This document shows, one piece after another, positions 1 through 19,649 of a stretch of DNA of 64,000 nucleotides. A program made the translations under genes and the position numbers. Location of the stretch: assembly GCA_002269645.1 (NCBI GenBank), contig NIVC01000020.1, positions 1-64,000 on the forward strand, read 5' to 3'. This stretch comes from Macrostomum lignano. Its lineage: Eukaryota. Under the pieces are notes generated by a model that saw only the letters and a list, made by a program, of their open reading frames with translations, ran no database searches and was not told the DNA's origin. Every line of letters starts with the position of its first letter. Positions within the stretch are counted from its first letter, which is position 1.

Positions 1-134
1 TTGATCCAATTTATCCTGCTACTTTGCCGTTTGTAACTTTTTTACCTTTTTGCTATAAATTGTAAGATCTTTAGTAATGCATTCAATACTGCCTTTGATT
101 TCACCCTTTCTCTGATTGAAATAGTCCCGCTCCC

Positions 135-1597
135 TCAAATCTGCTTCATGCAGCTCAACCAAGGATAGATGTGTTCATTTTTTTCATTCATTTTTATGTG
201 GCGATTATGTCTAAAATCGGATAAAGTTGAAAGCCTGAAACAATAAGAACGTTGATCCTTCAGTGGCTGAATTAATATGCACTCTATAACCGAGAATTTT
301 TCGGTGGAAGCTACTTCAAAATATTTCATGACTCCAGGAACTAAACCAGCGTTTTCGGTAGAAAAAATATTCCTAAAGTCTCTCTTGTTATTGCTCCCTT
401 TCAGAATAAAACTTTTTGGTTGATTTTTTATAATTTCACTACCTACTGCTTTGGTTCCTTTCAATCCGAATTTCCAAATTTGAATAGACTCGGGAAGTTG
501 TACTTCAATGTAAGAATTGGGTTCATTCCTCGATGCCCATTCTGAATTAGATACTATATAACCCCAATTATCTGACGTTTCAAATGCTCCTGATGACGCT
601 ACATTGAAACCCCTTTCTCTATAGTTTTGACGTGTTGCTAGTGAGGGAATATATCCTGTATAAGATTTGAAACCTAGTCCCCGCCTTAGTCGCAGCTCCA
701 CTGATTCAAGTGCATTGTCTACGTATAGCTTTGGTACAGCTTGAAGTCTATCTATAGGCCACACTAAATCATTAACCACTGTTTGTCTCTCAAGTAATTC
801 AACTTTTGTAAGCTTTACGGAACCAGAAAAATTAAGAGAATAATGGAAATAATATGAGGGATTGGGTATTTTTTTCCTAAGATGTGCATTGCCCCTTCGT
901 AGTTCAATGGGTGCACTTTGTTCAACAGGTGTCCAGTTTGTTCCATTTAGGCTCACACTAACAGACCAACCAGGCCACACCTCTCCTTCCAACTTTATCT
1001 CTACAACTTTCCTAGCTCTTTTCAAAATTGAAATCGTATCCACTTGTCTGAGTCATCTACACTGCTCCATTCTGAAGCTGGGTTTGAATCTGCAACATGA
1101 TATGCTGCTGAAGAGTTATGAGAAGCGGTCACTTTCATGTCAGAATGGGAAGCGTTTGAAGTCAGTAATGAAAGAATATTGACTAATTTCGAACTCTCTG
1201 TACCTCCCGCAGTACCTTGCCTTCTGCTAACAAAGTGTCAATCTCAGTTTTAGAATACATCTTAGTGTCAATTCGTTTTAGAATACATCTTAGTGTCAAT
1301 CTCAGTTTTAGAATACATCTTAGTGTCAGTTTCGGTTTTTGTGTAGACATTGTTTACGCGCCCATGAGCATCGTCAATTAATTGTAGCATGGTGATATTC
1401 ATTGCGTCACTATCTTCCTTTGAATAAGAGTCTGAAACATTTCTCTTTGCTAACAATAAATTATCTATTTCCTCTCTCTTATATCCTTCATTTTCATTGA
1501 TGTATCGATCATCAGCTAACGCTATTGTTATTCCAGGTGCTATATCATTTGAATTTGACGAGTAACCAAATTGATTGGCAGTATTCTTGTAACTCAT
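135..1597 (-). pseudogene. Fibre/receptor-binding-like protein with YSKTEID repeats and two discoidin (F5/8 type C)-like domains; frameshifted
   Basis: ORF 1268-1597 has YKREEID/YTKTETD/YSKTEID repeats. The gap region reads ..SNPASEWSSVDDSDKWIRFQF in another frame. ORF 135-1043 has EWAS..NSYIEVQLPESIQIWKFGLKG..PKSFILKGSNN, a discoidin-like pattern. Confidence 0.6.
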
Positions 1598-2024
1598 TTT
1601 AATTGCTGCAAAATTTCATTATAGCTATCTCCTTTATCGATTCGGTGTAAAAAGTACAGCGACATTTGACCACAATATTTCTTATCAAAAGTTTGAATTT
1701 GTTCTTCCATGTCTCCACATATTCTATTCTTTGTGTGATTAAACTTTTCCATAATTTCCAGTGTGGGCGGTAGTGCATAGGAATAAAAAAATAAACCTTA
1801 TCAGGAGCTGAAAATATAGCTGAATGATGTATACCCCGTTCTTTCGAAGTGTGAATATTTGTCATAAAGTAACCATACTGTGGTAAATCAACAATTTCAT
1901 CTCTCATGGCATAGCGAAATGGTTTTAACTTGAGATATTTTGCCCAATTTATCAGATCAATATTAGTCGTAGTGTCAGTCCCAAACTTTTGTTTAAATGC
2001 ATTCCATGTCTCAGCTTCGCTCAT
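1594..2024 (-). pseudogene. Adenain-like cysteine protease (Polinton PRO), one frameshift
   Basis: Reads FMTNIHTSKERGIHHSAIF..VYFF. After restoring one base near 1790 it continues (D)SYALPPTLE..QIQTFDKKYCGQMSLYFL, giving the His, Asp and Gln/Cys motifs. Confidence 0.85.
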
Positions 2025-2033
2025 TTTTAACAC

Positions 2034-2822
2034 TCATATTTGTCGTACGTGTAGATTTATAAATATTTCCTCGCCATCAAAGTCGTATAGAACACCAGAC
2101 TCATCTTCGATGACAAAGTCGAATGTGCTCAACATGTTTGTAGTTAGTGGTAGGTACACAGGATTTGCGGCTCTTGAATAATTTTACTTCCCATTGGGAC
2201 AGAGAACGATGGAATTGAAAGAAGTATTTGCTTATCAATTAAATGATTTCCATTAGCTGGATCAGTGATAAACCCCCTTTGATATTTAGACAACGAACCA
2301 TGATCGCACTTCTAGCTCCGTCTATCCGAGCTGGATTTGGAGCTCTCTCAAATGGTTTCAAATACACTTCCGAATTGAATCCCAACAGTCTTCTAAAGTT
2401 ATTGGAATGTGCATCCCTGAAATCAACTTGATACTCTGTGGCTAACCGTAACTCAACCCTACGCGTGTCTAGGCTTGCACTGAAAACAATAGCCCCTCTT
2501 TCCAATCATTTGCAGCTGTTAGCAATCTTTGAATCTCGCTTGACAGACTTTTAACTTCCCAAGATCCCGCTTGAATCTTTATTTTTTTCCATGTTCTACC
2601 ACTATCCCTCGAGTATCGCAACTCATTATTGCCTCCTTCAATATTGTTAATAGCATCAAAGACTGCAAACTTTTTTATACCAGCTTCGTATTCTCGATCT
2701 TCATACAAATTTATCGGAGTGCCTAGAGTTTGTCGAAATGGGTTTTTAATTGAAAAGAAGTCAAATGTGCGTTGAAACTTTTTACTCAAGAGGATGTTGA
2801 CTTTTTCTATTTCTTTTTCCAT
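2034..2822 (-). pseudogene. Minor capsid protein (penton, single jelly-roll), multiple frameshifts
   Basis: Segments PINLYEDREYEAG..NNIEGGNNELRY..KIQAGSWEV; RLLGFNSE..IMVRCLNIKGG; and, in shifted frames, VPMGSKIIQEP / PVYLPL..EDESGVLYDFDGEEIFINLHVRQ. These match the Polinton mCP pattern. Confidence 0.85.
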
Positions 2823-2861
2823 TTTTAAGCAAGTAATTCTGCTAGCTCTTTATCAACATTA

Positions 2862-3553
2862 TTATGTCCCTCTGCTTGCGGCTAGTAATGTCAACACTCT
2901 TTCACTGAGTCCAGATCCCGGTTTTACTCGATATCCTGGTGGATTATCTTTCAATATCCTTACTGCTTGCTTATAATTCCCACTTGATTTGGCCGCTGGA
3001 TTTTTACAATGTTCAATGAGGTTAACATAATCCTGCAATGTTTGCATCTTGAATTGCTTCAGCTCTTCACCATTTTCAGTTACTTTAGGCATTTTGAACA
3101 ACTCTTCAAGATCTTCAGAAAATGGCATTCGAAATTCGTTGACAATGATGTCTCGACCTTGTTCATGGAATTCAACATCTATTACAGATGATCCAAATAT
3201 ATATCCAGCATCAGTTTTTTGAATCGTATACTAGGCGCTGGTCTTTGAGTTATTGGAATCTTTCCAATTTCTTCAATTATTTTGTCAAATACTTCCAGAG
3301 GTTCAAATCGTCCTTTTGGTGTACTTGATTGCGGAACTGGAACTTTTTGATTCTGAAGTTTATCAACAAGGTTGGCATTGACATCAATAAATTCATCGAG
3401 CTTTTCTGTGACAGGTTTTTGAGCTAATGGAGCCACTCTTGCATATAAACTCTCTTCTCCAATTTTCAAATAGCGTTGAGCATCATTTCTGGATTTGTAC
3501 ATTTCTCGCTGCTTTGCTAAATTAATGAGTTCTCTTATATATTCATTAGTCAT
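2862..3553 (-). pseudogene. Conserved Polinton hypothetical protein between ATPase and penton (split into two ORFs)
   Basis: N-half YLKIGEESLYARVAPLAQKPVTEKL. C-half ELFKMP..QDYVNLI..PGSGL. Position and motifs resemble the conserved Maverick ORF from recollection. Confidence 0.5.
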
Positions 3554-3555
3554 TT

Positions 3556-4328
3556 TTACAATGGGATTTTAGTTAGAACATCCTTATACAAATCTTGCTC
3601 ATCCTCATCAGCTCTTGTATTTATATAGATATAGCCATACTTCTTTTTCCAAGCCTCTCTACATTTAGCCTTGAATATAGCGGGTTCATAATTCGTTTCT
3701 ATATTTCTAGCAATGTGATTTAAGTTTGTATCTTTTTGTTTAAAGATTATGTAACATGTCGTATTCTCCCTGACAGTATTGCGATCTAGTTTGGTAAAAT
3801 TTTGAGCTAGATAAAAACCACAACAGTTTCCATGCCTGCCTCTCTGAAACAGACTTTCCTGAAATGTTTGATTAGCCTCTCCCAAAACATCGTCCAATAT
3901 CACACATGTCTTTAGTCCATTATGAAAAATTTCTTCATTTGGAGTATGGGAAAGAGTGACAGAATTTTCTCTATTACTTCTGAATTTTCTGATGTGCTTT
4001 GCACTCGACCAGGGTTGGCTGCCTCTCGACAAATATGTCTAATATCTTCAGGAGATGCATCCTCACTCACCTGGTAGACATGATAGAGTGAGTTGATAAG
4101 AGAAGGTGGGAGACCATTTTCAAAGCCATATTTTAGAAACTGATACTCTGGATCCATTTGAGATGCTCTGGGAACATATAAAACTAACTCATTAAAGTCA
4201 ACTAGTTTTTCAGGACTTGTAAGAATATGGAATAGTAAATATGTTTTACCCGTATTTGTAGCGCCGATAATACAACATAAAAGAGGATTAGGGAAAATAG
4301 GATCATGCTGAAATTTTACTTTGGGCAT
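3556..4328 (-). pseudogene. A32-like (FtsK-HerA) DNA packaging ATPase, one frameshift near 3960-4000
   Basis: Walker A GATNTGKT in ORF 3912-4328. Walker B VILDD, RGRH and YLAQ motifs in ORF 3556-4032. Confidence 0.92.
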
Positions 4329-4349
4329 TTAAAAAAAGAAAAAATGACC

Positions 4350-5712
4350 TTATTCGACGCGGGTCATTTGATATTCACTGGTAACTTTTATTACATTCTT
4401 TGTTTGTTCAAGAATTAGTGCAAAAGCAGTCAGCTCAACATTAGTTGACTTCTTGATAAATAATTGAATATTCACTCCACTCTTGACAGAAACTCATCTG
4501 AGCTGTTAGATCAAAGCAAAAGATTGGATAGATGGTTAGAAAGTCTTGTTTATTAAATGGTGGAGTTACACCGAAACGGCTGCAGATGTCCTCGTACATT
4601 TCATATGCTCTGTGAATGTCTTGAGCTACTGGATCAATTTCAACATAATCATTCGGATACATCACCTGATTTAATCTGACTTGAAGCTGGGTTATTTTCA
4701 CTGCATTTGCTCCAGTTTTGTAAGACACATACTTGTGATCATTAACTATATATGATGGGTTGTTTACGTCATATTTGAAAGCTACAAAGATTGCAAGTGG
4801 CATATTGGAGATGTTGGCTATGTTCCATGTATATGGACTTCCTTGAATGAGTTGTGGCGGAACCGTTACCCTCTCTGGAAATGATACTGTAATGTCCTTG
4901 TTGAGTGATTTTAGAAAAGCTGCTTCAGCACTGGGTGACAAACTAATAGCAGGGATCCAAATCTCAAAGCTATTAATAGTTAACTTAGCTTCCGTCCCGG
5001 CAGTTCCAAAGAAAATTTCAGCATCGTTAGTCTTTCTTGTCCATGTGAATTTATATTTAATTCCTTTGCTAATCTTCTGCCAATCAAGGAACCCAATGAG
5101 GGGTGTTAATGATAGTTTGATTGTTCCACCTCTGTTTGGAGCATTAGTGACATTGTTATAATTTTCAAGCCTCCTAATGTATCCAGTATTCGAATCCTTC
5201 TTATTGAGTCTATTTTTCATAGCGATTGCTGCAGTTCTCACAGCTTCAGCATCTGCGTTGTTTGCTAGAGCTATATCAGAAACAGTCCCAGCATCTCCAG
5301 TGTCTGGAATCCATCCGTATGCTTCTCCAACTTCATTCATTAATTTTGAGTACATTACGGACTTTAAGATTGTGTCATACTCTCCAGGATCATTATAGAC
5401 TTTCTTTGTTCCTCCAATGTCAACTATGAGTTGAGAGAAAAGTCTCATAGGCCAATTATGTTCTAGAGTAATGTTCGTATTCAAGTCGGTGTTATCTCGT
5501 TGTGTTATTGAGTATTTTATACAACCGAATGCCTCTGACATGAGAATGTATGACTCTGTTGAATTGACTTCATGAACTATTTGACCTCCTGCAACATTGA
5601 GATTATTAGTGCTACCTGGAGTTGGAGAAATCTTAATATAGTCTTCTTTCTTTTTGAAAAAGCTAAAAGTTTTGTCCTCATATATGCTCAGTATATCCTT
5701 TTTGTTCTCCAT
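4350..5712 (-). pseudogene. Major capsid protein (double jelly-roll, hexon-like), frameshift near 4485
   Basis: 423-aa ORF with LFSQLIVDIGG..NDPG..YS..GW and YPIFCFDLTAQ. The shifted frame continues KSGVNIQLFIKK..TAFALILEQ..VE to a stop at 4350. Confidence 0.88.
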
Positions 5713-5732
5713 TTTTATAAGAGAAATTTCAA

Positions 5733-6185
5733 CTAAGCTTCATGAGGTCTAAGAATTATCCCATTACCCTGTTTCTCCTTTTCAACTTTAAACGTCTTTA
5801 GCAGCCACTTGACTGCTTCGCTGGGTACTTGTTCGACTCTTTTAGCCGCATCAACTAATACTCCACTCCCTTGAGCCTTTTTCAACTCTTCTAGTTTTTG
5901 CCGTTCAATGCTTTCTATTGTCTTATTATGTTTAGCATTGTTGGCTGTATTAACACTTTTTGCAATCATTGTACCAACTCCTGAGGCTGCTCCGATACCA
6001 CCCAAAATTGCTGGTAGTAAGCCTAATAGAGGAATTATTCCACCTTCATGTTCTTTCTGTTTCTCTTGCAATTCTCGAATCTTCTCTTTAGAAAGATATT
6101 GCTTTTGCTTATTTACAGTAACATATCTTGGTTTTCCCTCTCGAACATATCGATTGAGTCTTGCTTCAGTGTTTTTCTCGCTCAT
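5733..6185 (-). CDS. Adenovirus protein-X-like core protein
   Basis: Basic N-terminus, then EGGIIPLLGLLPAILGGIGAASGVGTMIAKSV, similar to the adenoviral pX GGFLPAL..AAAIGA motif. Contains GSG/GNG motifs. Confidence 0.6.
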   Translation of the reverse strand: MSEKNTEARLNRYVREGKPRYVTVNKQKQYLSKEKIRELQEKQKEHEGGIIPLLGLLPAILGGIGAASGVGTMIAKSVNTANNAKHNKTIESIERQKLEELKKAQGSGVLVDAAKRVEQVPSEAVKWLLKTFKVEKEKQGNGIILRPHEA

Positions 6186-6193
6186 TTTTAAGG

Positions 6194-6616
6194 TCAGAAT
6201 TTCTTCAAACCATTGCCTTGTCTCAAAGACACTTGAGACTGTTCTGCTGTTCCTAGAGCCTTTTTAACAATATCTTGAATAGCCTTATTTGATTGAGAAG
6301 CTATCTGTTGCTCTTCTTCCATTCTTTTCTTTGCTTCTTTATCTCTACGTTTCTTTTTAATATATTCCAGTTCCTCACCTGCTTTAGACATGTCACTGTA
6401 TGATTTCTTCGCATCGAATATGTTCTTCGCTGTGGTAGCTGTTTTACCTATTGCATCAGCTCCACTCACAATTTTACTTCCATGATTTGATAAAAAGTTT
6501 GTGACACCACTGATCATATCACCAATTCCTTCACCCTCTTTATCAGCTAGTAGTTGTGAATCAGACGTTTCAATCTGACCTTTCGCCCGTTTGCAGTTTG
6601 TTCGATAGGCGCTCAT
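6194..6616 (-). CDS. Basic virion core/membrane-lytic-like protein
   Basis: Likely start ATG at 6616 (TAAAAATG context). GEGIGDMISGVTNFLSNHG amphipathic segment, lysine/arginine-rich tail and terminal GNG. Confidence 0.45.
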   Translation of the reverse strand: MSAYRTNCKRAKGQIETSDSQLLADKEGEGIGDMISGVTNFLSNHGSKIVSGADAIGKTATTAKNIFDAKKSYSDMSKAGEELEYIKKKRRDKEAKKRMEEEQQIASQSNKAIQDIVKKALGTAEQSQVSLRQGNGLKKF

Positions 6617-7928
6617 TTTTAGTTGAAAAATTTGCTGGTAGAAGCTGGGATTTGTAAAATGATCCAATGATTTCTTCTCCATTCTCATCCTCAATAATGT
6701 AGGTTATGGGATTGGAGTAAACTATTTTCTTTATCCTAAACACTTCTGAAATTTTCCAATATCCTCTTCGACCCTTTTCAAAGTGCTCCTTATATCTATA
6801 GATATGAACTTTGTCACCTACTTTGAAGTTTGGTTTCTCATTTGAATACTCGAAAGTTGGCTTTGGTACTCGCTCAGGATGTTTAGATGCTTCTGAAGGA
6901 GTTATCAGAATCTCAGAATGGATTGTGTTGTTGTATTTTTCAACAATAGCTGGCAATGTGTGGAGCCACTTCTGATTACCCTGTAGATCGAATTCAAACC
7001 AGAGTTTATTTGTGAGAGTACGATTGAACCTCTCAATCATTGCATTCTTAGACTCACCATAAATTGAGAACATCTTGTTAATATACTCCCCATTTTCATC
7101 TTTCTTTCTTATGTCGTCTTTTGAAAACGAGTATAGCTTGTACATATGCTGATTATAAAACTCCTTGCCTTCATCTACACAAAGTCTCTCTGATCGTCTT
7201 CCTGATTCCTTAAATACTTTTTGGAAAGCTTCTGCAACTTCCGCTCCCGTCTTTGTTTTTAAAGGAACTGCCCAGGCGTAACGTGTAAAACCATCTATGA
7301 TAGTGAGAGCATATTTGTAACCTCTTTCGGGTGGTAGGATAATGATATCTGCATGCCAAATTGTGTCTTTTGCATAGTGAATCATTTTTCTAAACAGTCT
7401 TGGTTTTCTATATTCCCTATGCAATTTTACTGCATCTTCATAGCTAAGACCCTTACCATAAATTGTTAGACAGTCTATACAATTGTTGGGGTTGTGAGTA
7501 TGAATTCCTAATCCAAACCGAACTTTAGCATTGATAATACGCTTTATTAGATTTCTAATGAGTCTCTCCTTTACCGACAAGTCGCTGGTTGGAATAGCAT
7601 CTAAATCAGCTATCATTTTTTCATCAGCAATATGCTTCTTTGCTAGGGCTTCCTCTGGAGTTGAAGACGTCTTTACAGCATCTCTATAGCTTTTGTCATG
7701 ATAGTAAGCAGTCCAATCAATTGGATTAATTGGTAGACTATCATACCGAGGCCAGTCTGTAGTTGGATTGAGTCTCTTGTCTAAATTTGTACCTGGGCCA
7801 GTGAAAGAATACCCTGGAATATGAAATTCGCCAGGATATTTTCCAGTGGCGAAGATGGGTGGTAGTTTTGTTATAGCTGACTGAATATCCAATGCAGAAC
7901 CTAGAAATAATGGTTTACTGAAGGCCAT
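6570..7928 (-). CDS. Parvovirus-type phospholipase A2 domain fused to retroviral-like (rve) integrase
   Basis: N-term GYSFTGPGT..PINPIDWTAYYHDKSY (PLA2 Ca-loop and HD motif). C-term WHADII..IIDGFTRYAWAVPLKTK..CVDEGKEF..IERFNRT (DDE core) plus a KVGDKVHI tail. One uninterrupted 452-aa ORF. Confidence 0.9.
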   Translation of the reverse strand: MAFSKPLFLGSALDIQSAITKLPPIFATGKYPGEFHIPGYSFTGPGTNLDKRLNPTTDWPRYDSLPINPIDWTAYYHDKSYRDAVKTSSTPEEALAKKHIADEKMIADLDAIPTSDLSVKERLIRNLIKRIINAKVRFGLGIHTHNPNNCIDCLTIYGKGLSYEDAVKLHREYRKPRLFRKMIHYAKDTIWHADIIILPPERGYKYALTIIDGFTRYAWAVPLKTKTGAEVAEAFQKVFKESGRRSERLCVDEGKEFYNQHMYKLYSFSKDDIRKKDENGEYINKMFSIYGESKNAMIERFNRTLTNKLWFEFDLQGNQKWLHTLPAIVEKYNNTIHSEILITPSEASKHPERVPKPTFEYSNEKPNFKVGDKVHIYRYKEHFEKGRRGYWKISEVFRIKKIVYSNPITYIIEDENGEEIIGSFYKSQLLPANFSTKNERLSNKLQTGERSD

Positions 7929-8159
7929 TTTTATAAAAATAAATTTAAGTAATCTACAGACTTAGGCTGCGTTAACTGCTGTAGCAATAGAGCCTGCTGC
8001 TGCACCTGCCTGTTCTATGAAAGGTAGATTTGTCTTTTACTAAGTTTGATATGGTGCTTATAGTATCAAAAAAGACCTTCTCCATTATACTCTAGTGGTT
8101 CGCCTATTGTATAGTCTCTTATCTTGCATGATTCTGTAACGTGGTGCGCTTCGTGTCTT

Positions 8160-8700
8160 TTTAGAAAGGGGGTGAACACAATAGACTAGCATGAGACGCT
8201 CCTATTGGTTGCCAAAACCAAAACTTTTTTGGCAGAAATTTTGGTCGCAAGATTTGGCAGAAATTTTGGCAGCCAATAGCAATGTTCAGTGCTGCGGTTA
8301 TGTATAGTTAGTTTGGTGAGTTCCTGCGAGAGCCTATTTGACCATACGCTTCACTCAGTGTGGGTTTCGCACGACGTTAAAGCTGAGTCACAATATAAAA
8401 ATTGCTTTGAGGAGAATTTCTCCTGCTATTTGTTCCATTTTTAAGATACATAATTTAGAAAAGGGTTAGTGAAATCGTCCGTAGGTAGGGTCGCGAGAGC
8501 ATTGTTCGTTTGTAACTTGCGTGGCCCACTTCATGTCTTTTTTTACAGCTAGATAGAGGGTGAACACAAAAGATTTGCACGAGCCACTCCTATTGGATGC
8601 CAAAACCAAACACTTTTTGGCAGAAATTTTGGCAAAAATTTTGGTTTTGGCAGAAATTTTGGCAGCCAATAGAAATGTTGAGTGCTGCGGTTAGTGCTCT
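8160..8700. repeat. Two ~140-bp diverged direct repeats, each an imperfect CCAAT-armed inverted repeat
   Basis: Units at ~8160-8300 and ~8548-8695. Arms cctattggttgccaaaa / ttttggcagccaatag enclose ttttggcagaaa repeats. Confidence 0.85.
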
Positions 8701-9778
8701 AGTAGTCGAGTATGCATGCCACGAAAAATTTAAATTAGCGCTCCATGTTCTTGAATGTCTTCTATTATCTTTAAGTACAAATCTAGAACAGCATTAAAGC
8801 CATTTCAAAGCCTCGGGACAAAGCGAATGTGCAGGAGCAAATTATTGACTTTTGTAGAAGCATTGTATGCCTCGAGTGGACAATTTTTATGCATAGATGG
8901 TAGCTGACTGATCGTTAAAAGCAAAGCTAGTAAGATTGGCTTATTGAAGGGCGTTATGCAATGGGAGAAAAGACTATTATTAAATTTGATGCTAGTTTTG
9001 AAATGATGAAACCTGAAAATAGGTTATTTTAACCCACGAATCAAAAATTTCTTGTGGTTTTACTCACGAAATCGCGCAAAAAGCAATTTTTCAAAACTTT
9101 TGAAAAATCACTAAAATCACTGTTTTCAGACAATTTTCACCTGTTTTTAGTCGATTTTTATCTGTTTTTTGTGATTTTTCAAAATGGGTTGCGCTCAAAC
9201 CTACTTTTCCTATACTACTGGGATTTCATGACAATTTTGTGCAATAAGGGTTCTTCCTGTCCCACTGAACTGAAGGGGAGTCTGAAGTGCTATTTTTCTT
9301 ACTTCAAATTCATGAATGTAAGTAAAAAACAAAGCGCATCAGAAATTACAGTAAAGGTAATGTAATTTAGAGGATTTGGGTTTTGAGATTTTAGGAGGTT
9401 TTGGCGTGCGTGCATTTTGATCTGCTGATGATGCATGACTTTTTTATTTTGCATACATACCTTCACTGTCTGTGATTCATCAGGCTCCATCTCTCAGTAT
9501 TCCACCAAATTTTACCGATTTTTGTAGACTGCTGCTGACACACGCTCGGTTGCGTCCTCTGGACGCGCGTCATCGGTACGGGCATTATCTCAAGATCCAA
9601 AAGCAGTCAACGATCAGATTGAGGTGCGAACACAGTAACTAAAATATTTTTCTTTGATTTGTTGCTTAAAATTCAAGTAGGATAACGTATTTACCCGACT
9701 CCCATTTGTGTATATGTTGTAGCGCAAGTGGTAGGCGGGGGATCTAAAGTTGTTTTCAGGATAGTTAGGATAGTACGC

Positions 9779-10140
9779 GCTGTACTCTGTACGCTGTACT
9801 CTGTACGCTGTACTCTGTACGCTGTACTCTGTACGCTGTACTCTGTACGCTGTACTCTGTACGCTGTACTCTGTACGCTGTACTCTGTACGCTGTACTCT
9901 GTACGCTGTACTCTGTACGCTGTACTCTGTACGCTGTACTCTGTACGCTGTACTCTGTACGCTGTACTCTGTACGCTGTACTCTGTACGCTGTACTCTGT
10001 ACGCTGTACTCTGTACGCTGTACTCTGTACGCTGTACTCTGTACGCTGTACTCTGTACGCTGTACTCTGTACGCTGTACTCTGTACGCTGTACTCTGTAC
10101 GCTGTACTCTGTACGCTGTACTCTGTACGCTGTACTCTGT
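9779..10140. repeat. 14-bp minisatellite (GCTGTACTCTGTAC), ~26 copies
   Basis: Directly visible perfect array. Confidence 0.97.
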
Positions 10141-10346
10141 AAATGCATGTCAATTTTAGCGATCCCCACAAAATTCTGATTGAAATAGATAGATAAGCCT
10201 CAAGTACAGAGAGAGACATAGAGACTGTAAATTCCTGAAGCAGAGAGTGCCGCCCTCAGACTTTTTCATTCTGGGCTTGGGGCCAGACAACGGCGTCTTT
10301 ACGGCCCATTGTTTTGTTGCCTAGATTGTCCCTATTGTTAATCTAT

Positions 10347-10478
10347 CAAAGATAATGAAAGATTGATTGATTTAAATAAATCTCAATCTCAACCAAAGAC
10401 TGGTGATTAATTGAGTGATACTCAGTCAATCAGTCAATCAGTCAATCAGTCAATCAGTCAATCAGTCAATCAGTCAAT
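10347..10478 (+). repeat. Left copy of inverted repeat IR1 (~75-bp unique part plus CAGTCAAT tandem)
   Basis: Its reverse complement aligns with ~17170-17255, with tandem 8-mers on the inner side in both copies. Confidence 0.8.
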
Positions 10479-10663
10479 CTAGGTAATGCACAAATTAAGA
10501 CAATCGACTGCGATTTACAGGATAGCATAGAAATTTCAATAAGTGATTGCTTAATTTATTTCAGTCAGAGAGGTAGGGCAAGGCAAGGTAAGGTAATGAA
10601 CTTTTTAAATATTAAAAAGCAGGGAACGGCGTTTGAAAATATTTAAACGCCGGAACTATTCAC

Positions 10664-11001
10664 CAAATTTAGCATTAATAATTTATGCCGCTTAGAATCA
10701 GCTGTTCCAGAATCAGTGCTGATCAGTGCGAAGAAATCATTTACCAATTTCACATGGATCTAGGTGGAAGCGACTTTTAGTTCACGCTAGCCAGCGGCTG
10801 TAAAATGTTTTATCTAATGCTGCCTACTGAGCGAAACATCCGCGCATATGAGCACTGGCAAGCTGCCGACTCGGATACTTTCCTGGACGAAACAGCAACA
10901 GGCCCAGTCTACCGTGTTGTGCTGCAGCCAAGAGACACATTGCTGGTGCCAGCAGGGTGGATCCATGCAGTCTTCACCCCCGAGGACTCAGTGGCATTTG
11001 G
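10664..11001 (+). pseudogene. JmjC histone demethylase fragment (KDM2/KDM7-like), copy 1, 5' part
   Basis: SFTNFHMDLGGSDF*..LPTERNIRAYEHW..LLVPAGWIHAVFTPEDSVAF. Near-identical to 18416-18755. Confidence 0.85.
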
Positions 11002-11374
11002 TAGAGTATCATCAATCAGCCTTACCGCACGCTACTTACTATTTAAATTTTTTAGAAAATTTACTAAATTTCTTACTAATTTTTCTACCAAGTAGCCAGC
11101 AGTTCCTGTGCATAATAAACACGCTTGAAAAAGAGATTAGAAGGCAAAAACTGCGACACGAATTTCACGGTCTTCTATTATGAAAATTAATTCATACTAG
11201 ATAAATTGATAATTACATGTAAAAGAGCAGCGCGTATTTTTAATACATGTATAAAAATGTAGAATTACACAGGCAGTAAACAGCTAAAAATATGATGCGT
11301 AATAAGTTAGATTGATAAAATAATTAAAGCGAAATAATAATAATAAGTAAGTGATTCAAACAAGCAAACCCTAG

Positions 11375-11590
11375 ACCTAGTAGTCCCTGGCGTTCTTGAT
11401 TGCCTCTTGAAATTGACAAGTCCAACGGAGAAGCATCACTGGCGCCAGGCGGATCGCTTGCTTCCTCGAGATCGGCCCAAATTTGCTCCCGTTGACATCT
11501 TCTCCCTGTAAGCTGTCGGGCTAGGGTAGATCGGGCTTTGGCTTGTAGGACCACGGTATAGTACAAAATTTCGAATCTTGTTTTCGGGTG
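11375..11590 (-). repeat. IR2 segment, copy 1; open frame containing PLDLS
   Basis: About 210 bp, highly similar in inverted orientation to 15790-16000. Confidence 0.85.
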
Positions 11591-11641
11591 TGAGATTGAT
11601 AATTAATTATTGCCTTTTGGCTGACTTCTAAGCGAGACATT

Positions 11642-11830
11642 TCCTATTGGTTGGCAAGATTGGTTGGCAAGTTCCTATTAATTGGCAAGATTGGTTGGCA
11701 AGTTCCTATTGGTTGGCAAGATTGGTTGGCAAGTTCCGATTGGTTGGCAAGATTGGTTGGCAAGTTCCTATTGGTTGGCAAGATTGGTTGGCAAGTTCCT
11801 ATTGGTTGGCAAGTTCCTATTGGTTGGCAA
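11642..11830. repeat. ATTGG (CCAAT)-rich tandem array upstream of the zinc-finger gene
   Basis: Alternating ttcctattggttggcaag / attggttggcaag units, followed by a short (TTAGGG)-like run at ~11841-11862. Confidence 0.9.
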
Positions 11831-11912
11831 CCCCTAAAAATTTAGGGTCAGGGTTAGGGTTAGTAAAGGCACTCGCAGTAAAATCGAAGTTAAGTAATTT
11901 CGTTGCACGAAA

Positions 11913-13607
11913 ATGGCAGAGAAAAAGAAAACGATAGATAAAGAGTGCGCCCTTTGCTGCAAGCAAATGAGGCTAGATAACCTACAGCGGCACGTTAAGA
12001 CGAACCATTCTAAGTTCACCCATCGGTTTGCCGACCTTCGCTCGTTCAGCACGATGGAGCACAAGGTTCGGGTAGAGAGCGGCGTTATGTGCATGATCTG
12101 CACCACGCCGCTCTGAGTTCCAGCATTCGAGACCACTACCGGCGCGGGCATCCAGGTGAGACGGTGTTATTATTTTTGTCCTCTTACAGTATTGCATATA
12201 TGTATAGCTATTATATTTATTATAAATAAACGATCAGGGCTAAATTGGGGCCCTCGGTTCAGCCCAGATATAAGGGCTCTGCCGATGTAATTAATTTAAA
12301 GTGAGATATTTGTTTTGAGTAAGAAATAAGAGATTTCGGTTATTTTTGTGTATAAAAAGAAGATATGTACTAGGAAATAGAGGGGGGACTGATAGAGAAG
12401 GGTTCAATGACAAAGATTTGGACCTACTAAGTACAGGGGAATAGTGCATTAGTGGAAGAGTTGCAAGAAGAATAAAAAAGCATATTGGCATTTTTTAATT
12501 TGAAAGAGTAAATAGTATTTGTAAGTTTTAAAAAGGGCTACTATTTAAAACAGGCATATATCCGTTTATGCTCTGACGGTCTCCCTCGGAGTGTCTGCTG
12601 GTGAACGGCTAGCTTTAAGCTGGAGTGGGCCAAAACCAGGACTGAGTCTGACCAAGACGAGGCGGTTGGCACGGCCCCTAATTTAAAAGGCGGGTTGGCG
12701 GAGCAAAGGGTGAAATAGTCCCGGCGAACAGCCCTCCTGCCGCTTCAAAGATAGACTGTCTTGGCAAAGAGTACCCAGGGTTCAGTAGGTGGGGAGGCTC
12801 CTCCGGGTTGCCACTGCCGTGGGGAGGTCTTCGGACTATATTATGGAGGTACACTATCCCAGGAGAAGACACGGGCTGCCTCCGAGGTTCAATCGACCCC
12901 TGATAGCCTTGGGGAGGTTTAGTTTTGTGGTTTGGAGTAGGTGCGACGCCCCGACAGCTGGGGGTAGGGCCCGCCCTCAGCCCGACTGGTGTCGCCTGCT
13001 CGGCTTGATGGTCACTGCAGTCTCTTTTAGCCTAGCTTAGGAACTTAGTGTACATTATTAGTACACTCCCAACCTGAAATCTAATTATTTCCTAGTGGCG
13101 TAAGAGCCTATCCAATGGCTGAAGCGTCTTATTACTTATCTTAGTTAGTTAGTTGGTTAGCGAAGAGGAAAAAATATTTCTTGAGTTAAAAATGAGGCAA
13201 AAAGCCAATTAAAAGTTATTATATTTACATGTTTAAGTATAATTTATTGTATAAGTAATATGTCTATATATTTACTTTTTTACGATGAATGTTAGTCCCT
13301 ATTTACTTACTTACTTTTTAAATGTGATTGCGCTGCTTTCGCCGTATGGACGTACTCTTACTGCACTCTTATCATATCAATAAACAATATAAAATATATT
13401 CAGTATTCGCCACATTACTTTCGTCACACAGGAGTGAAGTTATGGAATGGTATTGTTTTACAAGGCAAGCCTCACAAAAGGCTGGCAAGGCAATTTGCTG
13501 TTGCATATGTGCCTATAGCGAGAAAGGCGCTCCAGACGGATGCTGAGATGCCGACTCATCCGTCGACCTGGCATCGATTCGCAGACGAAATCGAAAAGCT
13601 AAAAAAG
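11913..13607 (+). pseudogene. Double zinc-finger (CxxC..H..H) gene, intron-containing copy; exons 11913-12155 and 13432-13607, 1-nt frameshift near 12112
   Basis: CALCCKQMRLDNLQRHVKTNH..MCMIC..IRDHYRRGHP|GVKLWNG..GKPHKRLARQFAVAY..PTHPSTWH aligns with ORF 17346-17876. Canonical cag|gtgag donor, cacag acceptor and aag|gtaagc donor. Confidence 0.75.
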
Positions 13608-13910
13608 GTAAGCTCTTTGTATAATTAATTACAATTGTAGTATTTAAAATTTAATATATACAAATAATTGGACACTTTGAGATTTACAAAGGCAAATAAA
13701 ATTCTGTTTGAAATTTCAGCTGAGGATTGTTAGTTGGAGCTAAATTGGCTGCTGGGAATAAAATGTCTACTGGGAATAGGGATGTCAGCTAGGGATGATA
13801 TTTTACCAGTCTGGCTAAATATATAGATGTAACATATGGATCTGGGAGATCTGCGGTCATATTATGGATCATCGTTATGAGCGGGGGTCATTGTCAACTG
13901 TGGGAATCTA

Positions 13911-13950
13911 GGGTTAGGGTTAGGGTTAGGGTTTGGGTTTGGGTTAGGGT
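13911..13950 (+). repeat. Short interstitial telomere-like (TTAGGG/TTTGGG)n
   Basis: gggttagggttagggttagggtttgggtttgggttagggt. Confidence 0.85.
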
Positions 13951-14938
13951 CTATATTTGACTCTGTGTATGTATGCATAAATATCGATCTTCATGTGCGC
14001 GTGCACGAGATAACAACAGCGTTTGACCAAGGTGTTGTTTATGCTTGTCGAAAGCAATTTAAGCAATTAGTATTGCCAAAGTTGAGCAGACAATGTGATA
14101 CGAAACTAGCAGAGTGAATGCGTCATAGCCAAATAGTAACAAATCTGGACGAATTTCAAAGGTTAACAACACAAGCAATTATTGGAAAATCTATGAATAG
14201 AAAGTCCCTCAACTGTAACCTTCAACCATGGTAACAATAGATTGGAACTAAATGACTTTCAGAAATAAGCCTTGAATGTTTTCACACGCAGGCCGTCAGC
14301 TTTTCTAGCTGGCACTCAATCATAGATTACAGAACCGAGAAGGTCTATTTACTAGTCAGTCTCCCTTTTAACCCCCGCTGAGTGGTGGATTGACCATTTG
14401 ACCGTGATTGCTTAATTCCCTCCCGCTTAGCGTATCGAATTTTGCGCTTGTTGGCCCGTAGGATACCGATTTTCGCTCATTTACGCAAGCGTTTCCATTA
14501 TGTTCAGTTTTATGTTGTAGCTCTGCGCTCAATTAGCAACGTGTAAATATTTAGGAATCGAGCGCAAAATTAGGCCCGTATGTGTTAATCCCCTAAAAGC
14601 CAATATTAGTTTGGGCACCAGAAAATTTCCATGGGCTGCTCTGCAGGAGGCCTTGTCCCGCTGTTTCAAATTTTATGGGAACATTTTTAACAGTCCCAGG
14701 GAAGTCTGGGACTGTTAAATTTCGCACGTTTCAGATTGAGTTTCATTGTTTGTTGTCACCTCGTCATAAATGGTGCAGCATCATTTGTTGAGAAGGTATC
14801 GAGTAGGTTAGAATTAGAATAGGTAAGCGTTAGCAATAATGGAGCCGTTGGTGTAGCTCAAGCATTAGCAGCAAGTGCATGGGGGGCGCCAAGCGCTGCG
14901 AAATTAGTTTGAGCAATGTTTAGGGTCAGGCAACAACA

Positions 14939-15345
14939 TTTAACAGTAAATAAGCCATGTGCTTGCTTTAATTGTCTCTCGGTCATTTGGGCCGTAATCA
15001 AACAGCAGTTCCTCGCCCTTATCGACCGCACGATTCGTAATGAAGTAAAGTGCGAAGCGGCACGATTTGTCGGCCACAGGCACTGAAATGATTCTGGCAA
15101 CACAGTTCGGACTTCTCCTTGAGTGATTCAGAAAGCGGCCGAGTCGCTCGGTGTACTGCGCGTCAATCGCGTAGTTTTTTTAGTGAAGCACAACCTCACA
15201 AATGTACCAGGTGTCGAGGCCATGTTGTTCGTAGTGCTCGACACGCTGGTCAATGAACTTTCGCGACTCTATAAGCTCGCCAGCATATTCGCAGACGAAC
15301 TCATGCCGTCGTAGATATCGGGAGGCGAACGCGTTCTTCACGCGA
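14939..15345 (-). pseudogene. SET-domain methyltransferase (SETD8/PR-Set7-like), copy 1, frameshift near 15180
   Basis: FVCEYAGELI..YAIDAQYTERLGRFLNHSRRSPNC..GEELLFDYG..IKASTWL*. This matches the SET RxxNHS and ELxFDY motifs and the SETD8-type W-L C-terminus. Confidence 0.85.
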
Positions 15346-15670
15346 ACAGCGCAGTTTTGCCGCGGGTGTGAAACTCGGACGAATAAACAAAATGAATGTG
15401 AAACGAACACAGACAGGGAGAAGTTCAGAACACCCCGTGTACAGTGGAGTTGCTGCAACTCGCAACCCTGCAATGAATTTGTACAGCTGAAGCAAAGTGG
15501 AAGTTCAGTTTTTGTGAGCGCATTCAGGCCAAGCCGCTGCTAAACTGTGCTCAAATACTTTCTCACTCCAAATAGGCCGCCTATTTGCTGCGCAGACAAT
15601 TTTCTGGGCGAAAATTATTTTCTCAACCATACACTCGAGATACTACTTAGGATATTTAGTTTATTCGAGC
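15345..15670 (+). repeat. Dispersed ~320-bp repeat, second copy at ~33445-33780 and diverged copy at ~31630-31830
   Basis: Shared gtgtgaaactcgg..cagggagaagttcagaac..gaatttgtacagctgaagcaaagtggaagttcag..cactcgagatactacttaggatatt. Confidence 0.85.
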
Positions 15671-15789
15671 CTTCGTGTGCCTTTACCAGCTATTCTCCTT
15701 TTAACAATTTTTCTGCTCATCAGCAATGGAACGTCGAACGTCGAACGTCGAACGTCGAACGAAAGTCCAACGTCGAGTTAGGAGGATCA

Positions 15790-16000
15790 TCGAAAACAAG
15801 ATTCGAAATTTTGTACTCTACCGTGGTCCTAAAAGCCAAAGCCCGATCTACCTTAGCCCGACAGCTTACAGGGAGAAGATGTCAACGGGAGCAAATTTGG
15901 GCCGATCTCGAGGAAGCAAGCAATCCGCCTGGCGCCAGTGATGCTTCTCCGTTGGACTTGTCGATTTCAAGAGGCAATCAAGAACGCCAGGGACTAGGTC
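15790..16000 (+). repeat. IR2 segment, copy 2; open frame containing PLDLS
   Basis: Inverted copy of 11375-11590. Confidence 0.85.
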
Positions 16001-16049
16001 TGCAACGTCTGCAACGCCCCCAATTTCACTTATTAAAATTAACTTCACG

Positions 16050-16492
16050 TCGCGCCCCCCCCCCCAGAACTGCGGTTTGCCGCCCCTTTGGAAATGCTGC
16101 CGCTTTCCTGGCGCCCCCCCCATAAAGAAACTGGCGCCCTAACCCTATAAACTGCCCCCCTATAAAAAAACTGGCGCCCCCCTCCTATAAAGAAATTGGC
16201 GCCCCCCCCTATAAAGAAACTGGCAGCCCCCCCCCCCTATAAAGAAACTGGCAGCCCCCCCCTATAAAGAAACTGGCAGCCCCCCCCCCCTATAAAGAAA
16301 CTGGCAGCCCCCCCCCCTATAAAGAAACTGGTGCCTCCCTATAAAAAAAACTGGCAGCCCTCCCCCCTATAAAGAAACTGGCGCCCCTAAAAGAAACTGG
16401 CGCCCCTAATAGAAACTGGCGCCCCCCACCTACAAGAAACTGGCGCTCCCTAACTCACGCCCCCCCAAACATAATTCCTGGCTACGCCCCTG
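16050..16492 (-). mobile_element. hAT-like non-autonomous element remnant with internal ccccctataaagaaactggc repeats
   Basis: Terminus cctggctacgcccctg (= CAGGGGCGTAGCCAGG) typical of hAT MITE ends. The other end was not found. Confidence 0.5.
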
Positions 16493-16744
16493 TGTATATA
16501 TAACGCATAATGTATAATGTATGATGTAAATAATGCATAATGTATATACTATATAATGTAAAATATTTACTTATTTGTTTGCTTACTTGTATGCTTATTG
16601 TTTGCGCTTGTTTGAATCGTTTGCTTATTATTATTATTTCATTAATAATTTTCGATGTAATTATTTTATCAGTCTAAATTTTATCGCAATGCACGCTGCT
16701 CTTTTAATTATCAATTAGTATAGTATGAATAAATTGTCGAAATT

Positions 16745-16850
16745 AAGGAGTTGAAGGAAAAAACTGTGCCAACAAGGCGTGCGTTGAAGCGAAAGTGGCC
16801 GATTTGATTGATTTCGAATAATTAGCAGATAACCTATCAAAATTACAAAA
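16745..16850 (+). pseudogene. JmjC gene 3' tail fragment
   Basis: Matches 19026-19128 (ggagttgaaggaaaaaac..tgcgttgaagc..aaattacaa). Confidence 0.8.
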
Positions 16851-16964
16851 AACTTTTACTGTACTGTATTATAAATCGGGGGGGGGGGTGGGCCCTGTGG
16901 GTCGGCCACGGGGGCGGCCCAAGATAGGAAGTAAATAAGGACAAAAGAGGGACAGCATTAAAAC

Positions 16965-17255
16965 ATTGATTGACTGATTGACTGATTGACTGATTTATTT
17001 ATTGATTGACTGACTGATTGACAGATTGAATGATTGACTGATTGACTGATTGACTGATTTATTTATTGATTGACTGACTGATTGACAGATTTATTTATTG
17101 ATTGACTGACTGATTGACTGATTTATTTATTGATTGACTGACTGATTGACAGATTGACTGGTTGACTGATTGACTGGTTGACTGATTATCACTCAATTAA
17201 TCAGTCTTTGATTGAGATTGAAATGTATTTAAATCGATCAATATTTTAATATCTT
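16965..17255 (-). repeat. Right copy of inverted repeat IR1 (ATTGACTG tandem plus unique part)
   Basis: Reverse-complement match to 10347-10478. Confidence 0.8.
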
Positions 17256-17345
17256 TACTATTGGTATATTTCTTTCACATTCCTGCCCGGCAAATCGGAT
17301 AGGAATAGTTCGTGCGAAACCTTTTACCCTCAGCGAATAGCGATC

Positions 17346-17876
17346 ATGCCATCAATCCATGTAAACTGCGTCATCTGCGATGCGGAAATGCGAAAAGACA
17401 ACTTGGCACGCCATGCTAGAAGTCGACACCCAGATCATCGCGTCGAAGATGACGCAGCGACCTTATGGTTTGCGACCTTCGAGCGATCAGTTACCTCTGG
17501 TCACGGCATGTGCTGTGTGTGTAGAGAGGCGTGCGTCCTGCTCCGCTCGCACTACAGAAGCCACCACCCGGAGCTCAATGAGCATAAGGGAAAGCCCATA
17601 AAGGGCAAAGAGCATCAAGTGCAGGCACGTGAGTACGCACGAGCCTATATAACTGTGGCCCGCACAGAGATTATTAATGGCCGACCACTGCCACCGCATC
17701 CTGCAACGTGGCACCAAGCCGAGCAGCAGCAGCAGCAGCAGGCGCTACAACCGGCCGAGCGCGAGCAGCAGCAGCAGCAGGCGCTACAACCGGCCGAGCT
17801 CGAGCAGCAGCAGCAGCAGGCGCTACGACCAGCCGAGCTGGAGCAGGAGCAGCCGCAGGAGACGCAGGAGACGTAG
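17346..17876 (+). CDS. Double zinc-finger protein with polyQ tail, intronless copy
   Basis: CVICDAEMRKDNLARHARSRH and CCVCREAC..RSHYRSHH. ATG-to-stop intact, 176 aa. Confidence 0.7.
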   Translation: MPSIHVNCVICDAEMRKDNLARHARSRHPDHRVEDDAATLWFATFERSVTSGHGMCCVCREACVLLRSHYRSHHPELNEHKGKPIKGKEHQVQAREYARAYITVARTEIINGRPLPPHPATWHQAEQQQQQQALQPAEREQQQQQALQPAELEQQQQQALRPAELEQEQPQETQET

Positions 17877-17919
17877 GATCAGTCTAAATCAGATTACATA
17901 AATTGGGTGAGAGGGTTCC

Positions 17920-18415
17920 TACGAGGGGCATTCAAAAAGTTTTGACAACTGACCTAATATCTTTAAAAGTACATATCACAAAGCGTTGAATTTTTTTTTA
18001 CGAAATCGCCGATATATTGGTTTTAACCATAGAGTATGACTTTTTTCCCTCGAATGTGTTATACTTGTGCGTGGCCAACGCAAGGTGGTGTTTTACAATC
18101 TGCCAAAAATGGAGCCAGTGCACCAGACCAGTGGCGATTTTTCGTTTTCATGCGCTCACGACTCGGAGAAAGCGCGGTCAAAATCCATGCAGACCTGGTC
18201 CAGGTAGTCGGGGACCAAGCCCCTTCCTATCGCACGGTCGCCAGGTGGATAGAGTCCATCAACGCCGGACGGGCCTCCTTGAACGACGACCCCCGGTTTG
18301 GACGACCCAGCACAGCTGTGACCGAAGCCAACATCGCTGCTGTCAGGGCTCTGGTGGACGAGGATCCAAACATTACCGTCGCTGTGATTAGCGAGACTGT
18401 CGGTATTTCCGAATG
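17920..18415 (+). mobile_element. Mariner transposon 5' remnant (TIR plus HTH of transposase)
   Basis: TA + CGAGGGGCATTCAAAAAGTT terminus. Peptide IHADLVQVVGDQAPSYRTVARW..LNDDPRFGRPSTAVT..VRALVDEDPNIT. Confidence 0.9.
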
Positions 18416-19078
18416 CCAAATTTAGCATTAATAATTTATGCCGCTTAGACACAGCTCTTCCCGAATCAGTGCTGATCAGTGCGAAGAAATCATTTACCAA
18501 TTTTCACATAGATCTAGGTGGAAGCGACTTTTAGTTCACGCTAGCCAGCGGCTGTAAAATTTCTTATCTAATGCTGCCTACTGAGCGAAACATCCGCGCA
18601 TATGAGCACTGGCAAGCTGCCGACTCTGATGCTTTCCTGGACGAAACAGCAACAGGCCCAGTCTACCGTGTTGTGCTGCAGCCAAGAAACACATTTGCTG
18701 GTGCTGGCAGGGTGGATCCATGCAGTCTACACCCCCGAGGACTCAGTGGCATTTGGCGGCAACTTCCTTAGCGTCTATGGCACGAATACGCACATTGCCG
18801 TGACTCAATCCGAGGAGAGGACCAAAGTCGCAGAGCAGTTTCGATTTCCGAATTTAAAATTTATCCTATGGCACTTTTCTGATTGGCTTCGTAATACTGA
18901 AAATTTAGAAAAAATGAAACTTTCTTTTTTCGATTTCGAATCATTAGCAGGAAACCTATCGAAATGGAGGAGACAATGCCCGGACGAGCTCGCTGAACGA
19001 TTGCAAAACATATTGCAAGGACTTTCGGAGTTGAAGGAAAAAACAATGCCAACAAGGCGTGCGTTGAAGCAAAAGTGA
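18416..19078 (+). pseudogene. JmjC histone demethylase (KDM2/KDM7-like), copy 2; one TAG and one frameshift
   Basis: FTNFHIDLGGS (HxD), GWIHAVYTPEDSVAFGGNFL (distal His), EERTKVAEQFRFP..LW. Confidence 0.88.
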
Positions 19079-19183
19079 CCGATTTGATTGATTTCGAACA
19101 ATTAACAGATAACCTATCGAAATTACAATTACTGTTTTACAGTCAATAGTTCTTTAATTGTTATAGTTGTTATAAGTTTTAAC

Positions 19184-19344
19184 CAGGGGCGGCGGAGCCT
19201 AACATTTTTGGGGGGGGCACTGGGCACAGGGCAAGGGTGGCACAGGTACCTTTGTAACTGCTAATTAGGGCCTAAAATCAGAAAAAGCACTAAAAAGTGG
19301 ACTCATTTTCTGGGGGGGGGGAGCACAAGCTCCCGCCGCCCATG
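19184..19344. mobile_element. hAT-like MITE (161 bp)
   Basis: TIRs caggggcggcgg / ccgccgcccatg (1 mismatch). Flanks gttttaac / gctataac match 6/8, a possible decayed 8-bp TSD. Confidence 0.6.
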
Positions 19345-19649
19345 GCTATAACTATAGATATAAGCTACAACTATAACTATAGATTTAGGCTACAACTATA
19401 AGCTATAATTGATAGATTATAGTTGCTATAATTGTTATACTTGGATATAGTTGTTATAGTTGTTGTTATAGTTGTTATAATTTTTATTGTTTTACAGTTA
19501 ATAGTTCTTTATAGTTATACAATTATTGTTAGTTTGTTACAGGAACAAAAAGGAACACTAAGTTTCGTTAACTTAATAAGGTGATCAATGTCATGATTCA
19601 TCACCAGGATTTGGCCGGATAATGATTTTATCTGTAGCTAACCTATTCC

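Follow-up and report, generated by a model that had tools for sequence, protein, structure and literature searches.

The first 64,000 nucleotides of the Macrostomum lignano contig NIVC01000020.1 (GenBank assembly GCA_002269645.1, forward strand; this whole stretch is called the window in the following) contain the integrase and virion part of a recently decayed Maverick/Polinton provirus, which is cut by the left window edge and whose right end is indistinct. The integrase is encoded as the C-terminal part of an in-frame fusion with a phospholipase domain (PLA2). This linkage of PLA2 and integrase is conserved across a large lineage, either in frame or with overlapping frames. Judging from the sequences, the best explanation as a whole would be a decayed provirus with a conserved PLA2-integrase link, in which the linked protein served as a packaged core polyprotein and which belongs to a family with a PolB polymerase; we consider this rather probable.

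The fusion protein comprises 452 aa in one unbroken reading frame (6570..7928, minus strand), which extends 47 nt into the next gene, and both domains score above the cut-off (PF08398 with E 1e-8, PF00665 with E 8e-10). The PLA2 domain (about aa 35-110) is of the parvovirus type and contains intact calcium-loop GxG and HDxxY motifs. It is followed by a GxG-hydrophobic boundary at aa 139, a CxxC linker, the rve core and an SH3-like end. The residues D194, D252 and E299 of the catalytic triad are invariant in the homologue alignment, and fold matches were obtained with the integrases of foamy virus, MELD virus and mavirus. A preliminary description of this DNA had already named an integrase, which the rve match supports, but the protein is not a stand-alone one; its position C-terminal to PLA2 had been missed. 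Alpha-adintovirus PLA2X (PMC8502044) and the CAP protein of a Spodoptera Maverick (PMC5803895) share with the window protein a parvovirus VP1-type PLA2 with its catalytic motifs and a proposed membrane role at entry. As far as they are described there, however, both are separate genes with a pX-like C-terminus, whereas in the window PLA2 is joined at its C-terminal side to the integrase, and a gene of its own encodes the pX-like protein; PLA2X, understood as a PLA2 with a C-terminal pX-like domain, does not cover the window protein.

We regard the fusion as native, since its closest homologues (P0001, P0003, P0004 and P0014) share the in-frame linker and 79 of the 120 homologues listed carry PF08398 and PF00665 in one open reading frame (ORF). 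With a local profile both domains were found in 98 of these 120 listed homologues, 86 of which show the HDxxY motif. A fusion of this kind was not found in the Polinton papers searched. In the available portions of PMC11071296, PMC11131425, PMC3671162, PMC5803895, PMC11296320, PMC8097293, 10.1101/2023.08.22.554363 and 10.64898/2026.10.13.758929 PLA2 occurs only as a separate gene, and the frameshifts predicted in these portions concern only penton and hexon-protease. PLA2-integrase fusions may exist among the annotated genomes that supplement the two Buck-group papers and the 2026 preprints.

Thirteen contigs with related integrases (L001-L013) were identified in a scan of prokaryotic genome bins. 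The bins are GTDB genomes of bacteria and archaea, and the contigs, which are of Polinton-like or other eukaryotic virus type, evidently represent misbinned eukaryotic or viral DNA. In seven of the 13 loci (L001-L005, L011 and L013) PLA2 is located directly upstream of the integrase. L002 (CALODI010000002.1), L003 (CBDDTI010000304.1) and L004 (CALNXW010000008.1, a whole 14.6-kb element bounded by terminal inverted repeats, TIRs) furthermore share with the window homologous genes for the major capsid protein (MCP), the ATPase and a penton-like protein, and L002 and L004 in addition the protease and the start motif that is described below. They differ from it by a PolB with an endonuclease VII-like insert, by DUF5679, by a chromodomain and by another gene order, and their integrase is not in frame with PLA2.

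In L001, L002 and L004 a stop codon closes the PLA2 frame, which overlaps with an integrase frame shifted by -1. At 27 nt before the PLA2 stop there is a slippery A AAA AAC heptamer in phase, and a 5-nt spacer separates it from a downstream 12-bp stem, with z values of -3.8 and -4.7 for the two distinct junction sequences. All 12 stem pairs are kept between these two sequences, with one compensatory and two one-sided changes. No AUG precedes the codon of the first catalytic Asp in the integrase frame, so that without a shift the integrase of these loci would lack this residue. Slippery heptamer, overlap and stem are thus found together in three of the five out-of-frame loci. The window fusion itself is in frame, has no heptamer in its linker and shows a linker fold with z -1.0, and is hence not a -1 frameshift site. 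In the integrase tree, which comprises 42 of 48 rows (P0003, P0014, P0025, P0058, P0061 and P0113 were dropped by the trimming rule), the -1 clade is nested with starred support among the in-frame fusions, which indicates that the link persists while the coding mode changes. The tail pattern of L001 and L002 is present in three of 70 PLA2 tails. A back-translation scan of these tails for out-of-frame integrase starts gave a 10/10 match only for P0204; the other out-of-frame candidates, including all +1 cases, were rejected, and scores of at least 6 arise in about 3% of shuffles.

A GxG-hydrophobic motif, which ends the PLA2 domain in the window, in L002 and in L003, occurs 24 times in the 2034 residues of 11 core-type proteins versus once in the 5798 residues of 15 others, the shuffled maximum being 11. 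In the active ancestor the PLA2-integrase protein would have been a core polyprotein that was packaged alongside the X-like proteins. Adenain would cut this polyprotein at the GxG-hydrophobic motif, which would mark the core proteins. The products would be PLA2 for endosomal escape and a virion-borne integrase that inserts the incoming linear genome, much like retroviral Gag-Pol. For PLA2 a function as virion entry protein in membrane escape has been proposed (PMC8502044). A -1 ribosomal frameshift may set the ratio of PLA2 to integrase in one sub-lineage and thereby lower the integrase dose, and the window clade would make both parts at 1:1. The family most likely had a PolB, which would be encoded left of the window or have been lost from this copy.

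In the Gag-Pol proteins of retroviruses and long terminal repeat retrotransposons a structural protein is located upstream of the integrase, either in frame or via a -1 slippery heptamer and a stem. The same arrangement is seen here, and processing by a protease is expected as well. Here, by contrast, a DNA virus is concerned, with a phospholipase as the upstream partner and without a reverse transcriptase; the comparison is therefore an analogy, and homology is claimed for the integrase alone. A broad animal Polinton lineage might have converged on the Gag-Pol solution, a suggestion which we make tentatively: the integrase, produced in frame or by a -1 frameshift as an extension of a membrane-lytic PLA2 core protein, would be packaged and released by adenain at GxG, and the elements would integrate directly from incoming virions.

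Several points weigh against the reading of a packaged core polyprotein in a family with PolB. The grouping into core and non-core proteins for the GxG comparison was chosen after the sequences had been seen. The count of 79 fusions is biased toward fusions, because the query was the fusion itself, and among 150 PLA2 representatives only five scored as fused to an integrase, most being stand-alone or basic-tailed. The junctions of L005 (-1) and L003 (+1) show no significant stem and may be indels, since both lie in A-runs. In a covariation test over the two distinct junctions 246 of 500 shuffles tie, and because there are only two such sequences no significant covariation is possible. The penton fold was not confirmed (the model of the L002 relative has a predicted local distance difference test value of 44 and gave no fold match), and in the 42-row tree the PolB-bearing loci are found outside the window's own integrase clade.

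The element could be an ordinary decayed Polinton, in which the fusion is an accident of gene order without a packaging role and the overlaps in the relatives are due to decay or sequencing errors. Degradation is common, as 96% of the vertebrate Maverick loci are degraded (PMC8097293), and the missing stems at L003 and L005 as well as the many PLA2 genes that stand alone are in line with such an accident. However, the other ORFs of L002 and L004 are long and intact, L001 and L002 have the same heptamer, spacer and 12-bp stem although their capsids are only 59% identical, and the integrases of both loci would depend on the shift for their first catalytic Asp. We regard an accident as rather unlikely and prefer the packaged core polyprotein.

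The element is most probably a Maverick/Polinton (adintovirus-type) provirus of Macrostomum. The preliminary description had assigned it to the endogenous adintoviruses/Polintons, which is supported by the PF00665 integrase, the PF21738 MCP and the homologous genes in the related loci. The gene block spans 19 to about 8160 and is AT-rich (GC 0.37). That it forms a single head-to-tail block on the minus strand, as claimed before, is borne out by the stop-free frames of at least 100 aa, which cover 88% of bases 1-7960 on the minus strand versus 13% on the plus strand, and by intergenic gaps of -47 to +39 nt. In the order of transcription, down to the window edge, the genes are the following, and two further features are added at the end:

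7962..8160, minus strand: broken X-like core-protein remnant, read in three frames (E 1.2-2.2 to the pX-like protein of L002), with an uncertain upstream limit
6570..7928, minus strand: PLA2-integrase in-frame fusion, described above
6194..6616, minus strand: X-like core protein 2, an unbroken ORF of 140 aa with two GxG-hydrophobic motifs
5733..6185, minus strand: unbroken pX-like core protein of 150 aa (E 9e-12 to L002:3332-3913 by tblastn)
4350..5712, minus strand: double jelly-roll MCP (PF21738, DJR-like_dom, E 2e-10, above the cut-off), frame change near 4488
3556..4328, minus strand: A32-like packaging ATPase (Pox_A32 E 2e-4 on one piece, below the cut-off), frame change between about 3942 and 3978
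2862..3553, minus strand: gene in two offset ORFs, break near 3180-3230
2034..2822, minus strand: penton-like (minor capsid) gene, whose frame changes at least twice (three-piece tblastn match to L003:8217-8993 with E 1e-16)
1594..2024, minus strand: adenain-like cysteine protease (tblastn about E 1e-5 to the L002 and L004 proteases), frame change near 1790
135..1597, minus strand: fibre-like gene in offset ORFs, with N-terminal peptide repeats and a C-terminal F5/8 type C (discoidin) domain (PF00754 E 7e-6, below the cut-off)
19..191, minus strand: small broken ORF at the window edge, with the start motif at 191
191..7933, minus strand: motif TAAA(A)(A)TG, present at all predicted gene starts (10 of 10 starts versus 2 of 169 other ATGs)
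8140..8693, no strand: at the right junction, a repeat that forms hairpins and has inverted CCAAT boxes, in two copies (79% identical by self-BLAST)

The gene content agrees with the complete virion module that had been described, but compared with intact relatives frame changes interrupt MCP, ATPase, penton-like gene and protease. According to the ORF list two further genes of the block also sit in offset ORFs. The MCP is homologous to those of L001-L004; it gave no match to PDB sequences, and an MCP alignment used as query on genome contigs recovered no locus. In addition to its Pox_A32 match the ATPase is related to the ATPases of the related loci (tblastn E 1e-17, and E 7e-25 in two pieces to that of L003, which itself scores Pox_A32 above the cut-off), and its assignment holds. 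The penton-like gene is homologous to a conserved gene of 245-260 aa in L002-L004 (tblastn E 9e-16), which has the expected size, and falls into Atlas clusters with 0.96-0.98, two of them with Preplasmiviricota as the commonest phylum, at a recognition score below threshold; the penton proposed before stands as a homologue of this gene, not as a confirmed fold. The protease is borne out weakly and indirectly through its L002 and L004 homologues (Peptidase_C5 E 0.009, adenovirus protease chains E 0.08), with which the His, Gln and Cys positions align. For the fibre-like gene a 30-bp tandem array at 1234-1339 was found, together with matches in Atlas (0.92), to PHROG 16348 (E 5e-9) and to a tail family (E 0.012); the peptide repeats and the discoidin domain suggest a fibre.

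The relative of the pX-like core protein, L002:3332-3913, scores Adeno_PX with E 5e-4. X-like core protein 2 resembles by eye the 104- and 155-aa genes of L002 and L003 (E 0.38). The truncated X-like peptide reported at about 7960-8030 is present at about 7962-8030, and the remnant as a whole seems to be X-like; it had been said to be followed by unrelated sequence, but it seems to run on to about 8140-8160 (weakly, E 1-2) and is then followed by the hairpin repeats. Beyond what had been described, the block contains the conserved-looking gene 2862-3553, the small ORF 19-191 and the PLA2 domain on the integrase. The gene 2862-3553 is possibly the conserved 290-aa Polinton gene, but it gave no significant match to the candidates for this gene in L002 and L003. 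For the small ORF neither a homologue nor a match to PolB was found, and a SLATT-like terminal gene is not supported.

Maverick/Polintons, which are the adintoviruses (class Polintoviricetes; PMC8502044, PMC8097293), share with the window an rve integrase, a double jelly-roll MCP, an A32-like ATPase, an adenain-like protease, a penton-like gene, pX-like core proteins, a fibre/lectin gene, tightly packed intronless ORFs and the integration in an animal genome. The window differs in that no protein-primed PolB (pPolB), TIR or target-site duplication (TSD) is visible, in the fusion of PLA2 to the integrase, and in the absence of the chromodomain described in PMC11071296. Adintoviruses are defined in that paper by an integrase with C-terminal chromodomain, an OTU-PolB and a hexon that is reciprocally recognisable against reference viruses. 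PF00385 is absent from the window integrase and its close homologues and is present in L001-L006. Polintons typically have TIRs with (AG)n or (AGT)n ends and TSDs of 6 bp. Neither TIR nor TSD was found at the right end of the block, and no long inverted repeat pair involving the block exists in the window, where only one end of the element could be in view. The TIR sequence of L004 has no match in window positions 1-20000, an Rfam search gave no matches, and a literature search revealed no paper on Polintons in Macrostomum.

The start motif is also found in L002 (10 of 10 starts) and L004 (10 of 11). It recalls TAAAT, the intermediate/late initiator of vaccinia, and TAAAN, its counterpart on yeast plasmids (PMC6211774). 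Of the top 40 of 379 listed papers on Polintons and virophages, one contains TAAATG. An A-rich translation context explains the motif equally well, and we treat it as a lead. A further TAAAAATG start motif is located at 8443 (minus strand) between the hairpin repeats and opens only a short frame. The repeats are 160-170 bp long (8140-8300 and 8520-8693), and their DNA folds with -19.6 and -24.7 kcal/mol, which are raw energies without shuffle control. They may represent a terminus, a promoter or an unrelated insertion.

The frame breaks are more likely due to recent decay than to assembly error. Aligned in two pieces, the window capsid is 98.5% and 100% identical to an intact 454-aa protein of M. 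lignano, P0121 (BOX15_Mlig029656g2). If the breaks were consensus errors of the assembly, the genomic copy would be intact, whatever the answer to the polymerase question. The breaks in segments aligned with homologues are frame changes and not nonsense codons, as expected for such errors, and the capsid deviates from P0121 at no more than 6 of 408 residues, two of them next to the break. Nearby ORFs, however, are long and unbroken (a 1145-aa ORF of a long interspersed nuclear element (LINE) and exons of a carboxylase (435 aa) and a mannosidase (368 aa)), and assembly errors are to our mind an improbable cause, about as doubtful as the accident of gene order discussed above. The annotation of BOX15_Mlig029656g2 came from a genome-guided transcriptome of a line with duplicated chromosomes (PMC5730564). 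This makes it probable that the intact capsid copy is transcribed; rather than a separate insertion, it may represent a homeologue. The terms Mlig029656, Maverick and Polinton do not occur in three supplements of PMC5730564.

No pPolB is in view in the window, as had been noted before. A Pfam search detected no PolB in the 147 frames of at least 70 aa that start at 8000-47000 outside tandem arrays, nor in 9 long ORFs out of the 76 frames beyond 47000. The best hit of five replicase queries (PolB and helicase) in a tblastn search of the whole window has E 1.4, further pieces of L009 reach at best E 0.06 in positions 1-20000, outside the block, and four PolB motifs are absent from all six frames. 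The same related loci used as queries do detect the virion genes and the integrase of the window. Since the block runs to base 19 at the left edge, this absence says nothing about the polymerase of the element, and for a polymerase-less derivative there is no positive support. Four PLA2-integrase loci exceed 10 kb, and three of them have a PolB. The whole proteins of L002 and L004 (1297 and 1326 aa) show the PolB motifs A, B and C as well as an insert resembling endonuclease VII, and L003 encodes the first 688 aa of a homologous PolB, cut by the contig end; the degraded L011 shows none before the contig ends. The PolB-bearing loci lie outside the integrase clade of the window and therefore make a PolB more likely but do not prove it. 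The search with a DNA_pol_B_2 hidden Markov model that had been proposed as a check is unsafe, as even with a threshold of E 1 it does not detect the PolB of either L002 or L004, and could therefore give a false negative. None of Pfam, NCBIfam, PHROGs and PDB sequences called these two proteins polymerases. As a separate observation, the PolBs of L002:11055-14945 and L004:10674-14651 are 41% identical, in contrast to 94-99% for the virion genes, which suggests a polymerase swap.

A helicase or primase-helicase encoded left of the window could take the place of pPolB. In the available text of 10.64898/2026.06.19.733378 helicases are reported to substitute frequently for pPolB in group 2 Maverick-Polintons, of which a phospholipase is a common component; the window shares with them the phospholipase (PF08398), a variable gene order and possibly a non-canonical replication module, and differs from them by its fusion, as neither fusion nor frameshift is mentioned there. 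Genomes with such virion genes but without PolB are also described in PMC11071296, and because of these reports a missing pPolB would not be new in kind. L006 contains an AAA_19 helicase-like ORF beside a related integrase, but has no PLA2 upstream of it, and in all three PLA2-integrase loci with a visible replicase this is a PolB; we hold a helicase to be unlikely. Still more improbable is a Macrostomum family of helper-dependent satellites without any replicase, consisting of integrase and virion genes only and transcribed from TAAAT initiators by the poxvirus-like polymerase of a helper virus: no replicase is found within the 64 kb, the motif stands at every start and matches the vaccinia and yeast plasmid initiators (PMC6211774), its TAA is not the upstream stop in about six of the 10 starts, and L011 likewise opens with PLA2-integrase without a PolB in 19 kb, but the window and L011 are both cut by sequence ends, the A-rich context may suffice (6 of 300 runs of an order-4 Markov null have at least as many), and the motif does not mark polymerase loss, because the PolB-bearing L002 and L004 carry it too.

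Two other related loci show unusual neighbours of the integrase. In L008:7469-14150 it is located among LEF-4, deoxynucleoside kinase and dUTPase genes of a nudivirus/baculovirus-like contig, and in L012:149-2797 TBP and TFIIB-like genes are found directly upstream of a Polinton-type integrase.

To the right of the block the window contains an AT-rich flank with duplicated fragments (10663-19078 and 23300-23500), which are possibly remains of another large mobile element. They include JmjC pieces (10781-11092, about 96% identical to 18416-18756), SET pieces (14943-15179 and from 23300 onward), two similar zinc-finger ORFs (11898-12113 and 17250-17876) and a mariner-type helix-turn-helix (18033-18422). 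A DNA transposon may be bounded by a 206-nt inverted repeat (11381-11586 and 15791-15996), whose arms are 98% complementary and separated by 4.2 kb. The unbroken 1145-aa LINE ORF, with endonuclease, reverse transcriptase and RNase H, occupies 19781-23218 (minus strand) and is followed by a second, broken reverse transcriptase element at 23300-25437 (plus strand). A DUF3504 fragment (27134-27553, E 9e-6) carries a domain which we take to be linked to Crypton-type recombinases. Two related-looking coiled-coil ORFs (29768-30691 and 33985-34647) have a glycine/alanine-rich hydrophobic hairpin and no clear Pfam family. From 43843 to 63999 GC-rich host genes lie amid minisatellites and encode a Sedlin-family protein, propionyl-CoA carboxylase alpha, a FYVE/B-box protein, a GH38 mannosidase and, in a small ORF, what is presumably a BRICK1-like protein.

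The intact and apparently transcribed capsid copy puts a member of this family in M. lignano, a transgenic laboratory animal. Gene callers will split or truncate integrases of the kind described here. According to the available text of 10.64898/2026.06.19.733378 no Polinton virion has been seen so far, and the PLA2-integrase link, kept in frame and by a frameshift-type signal, is indirect evidence for a virion stage.

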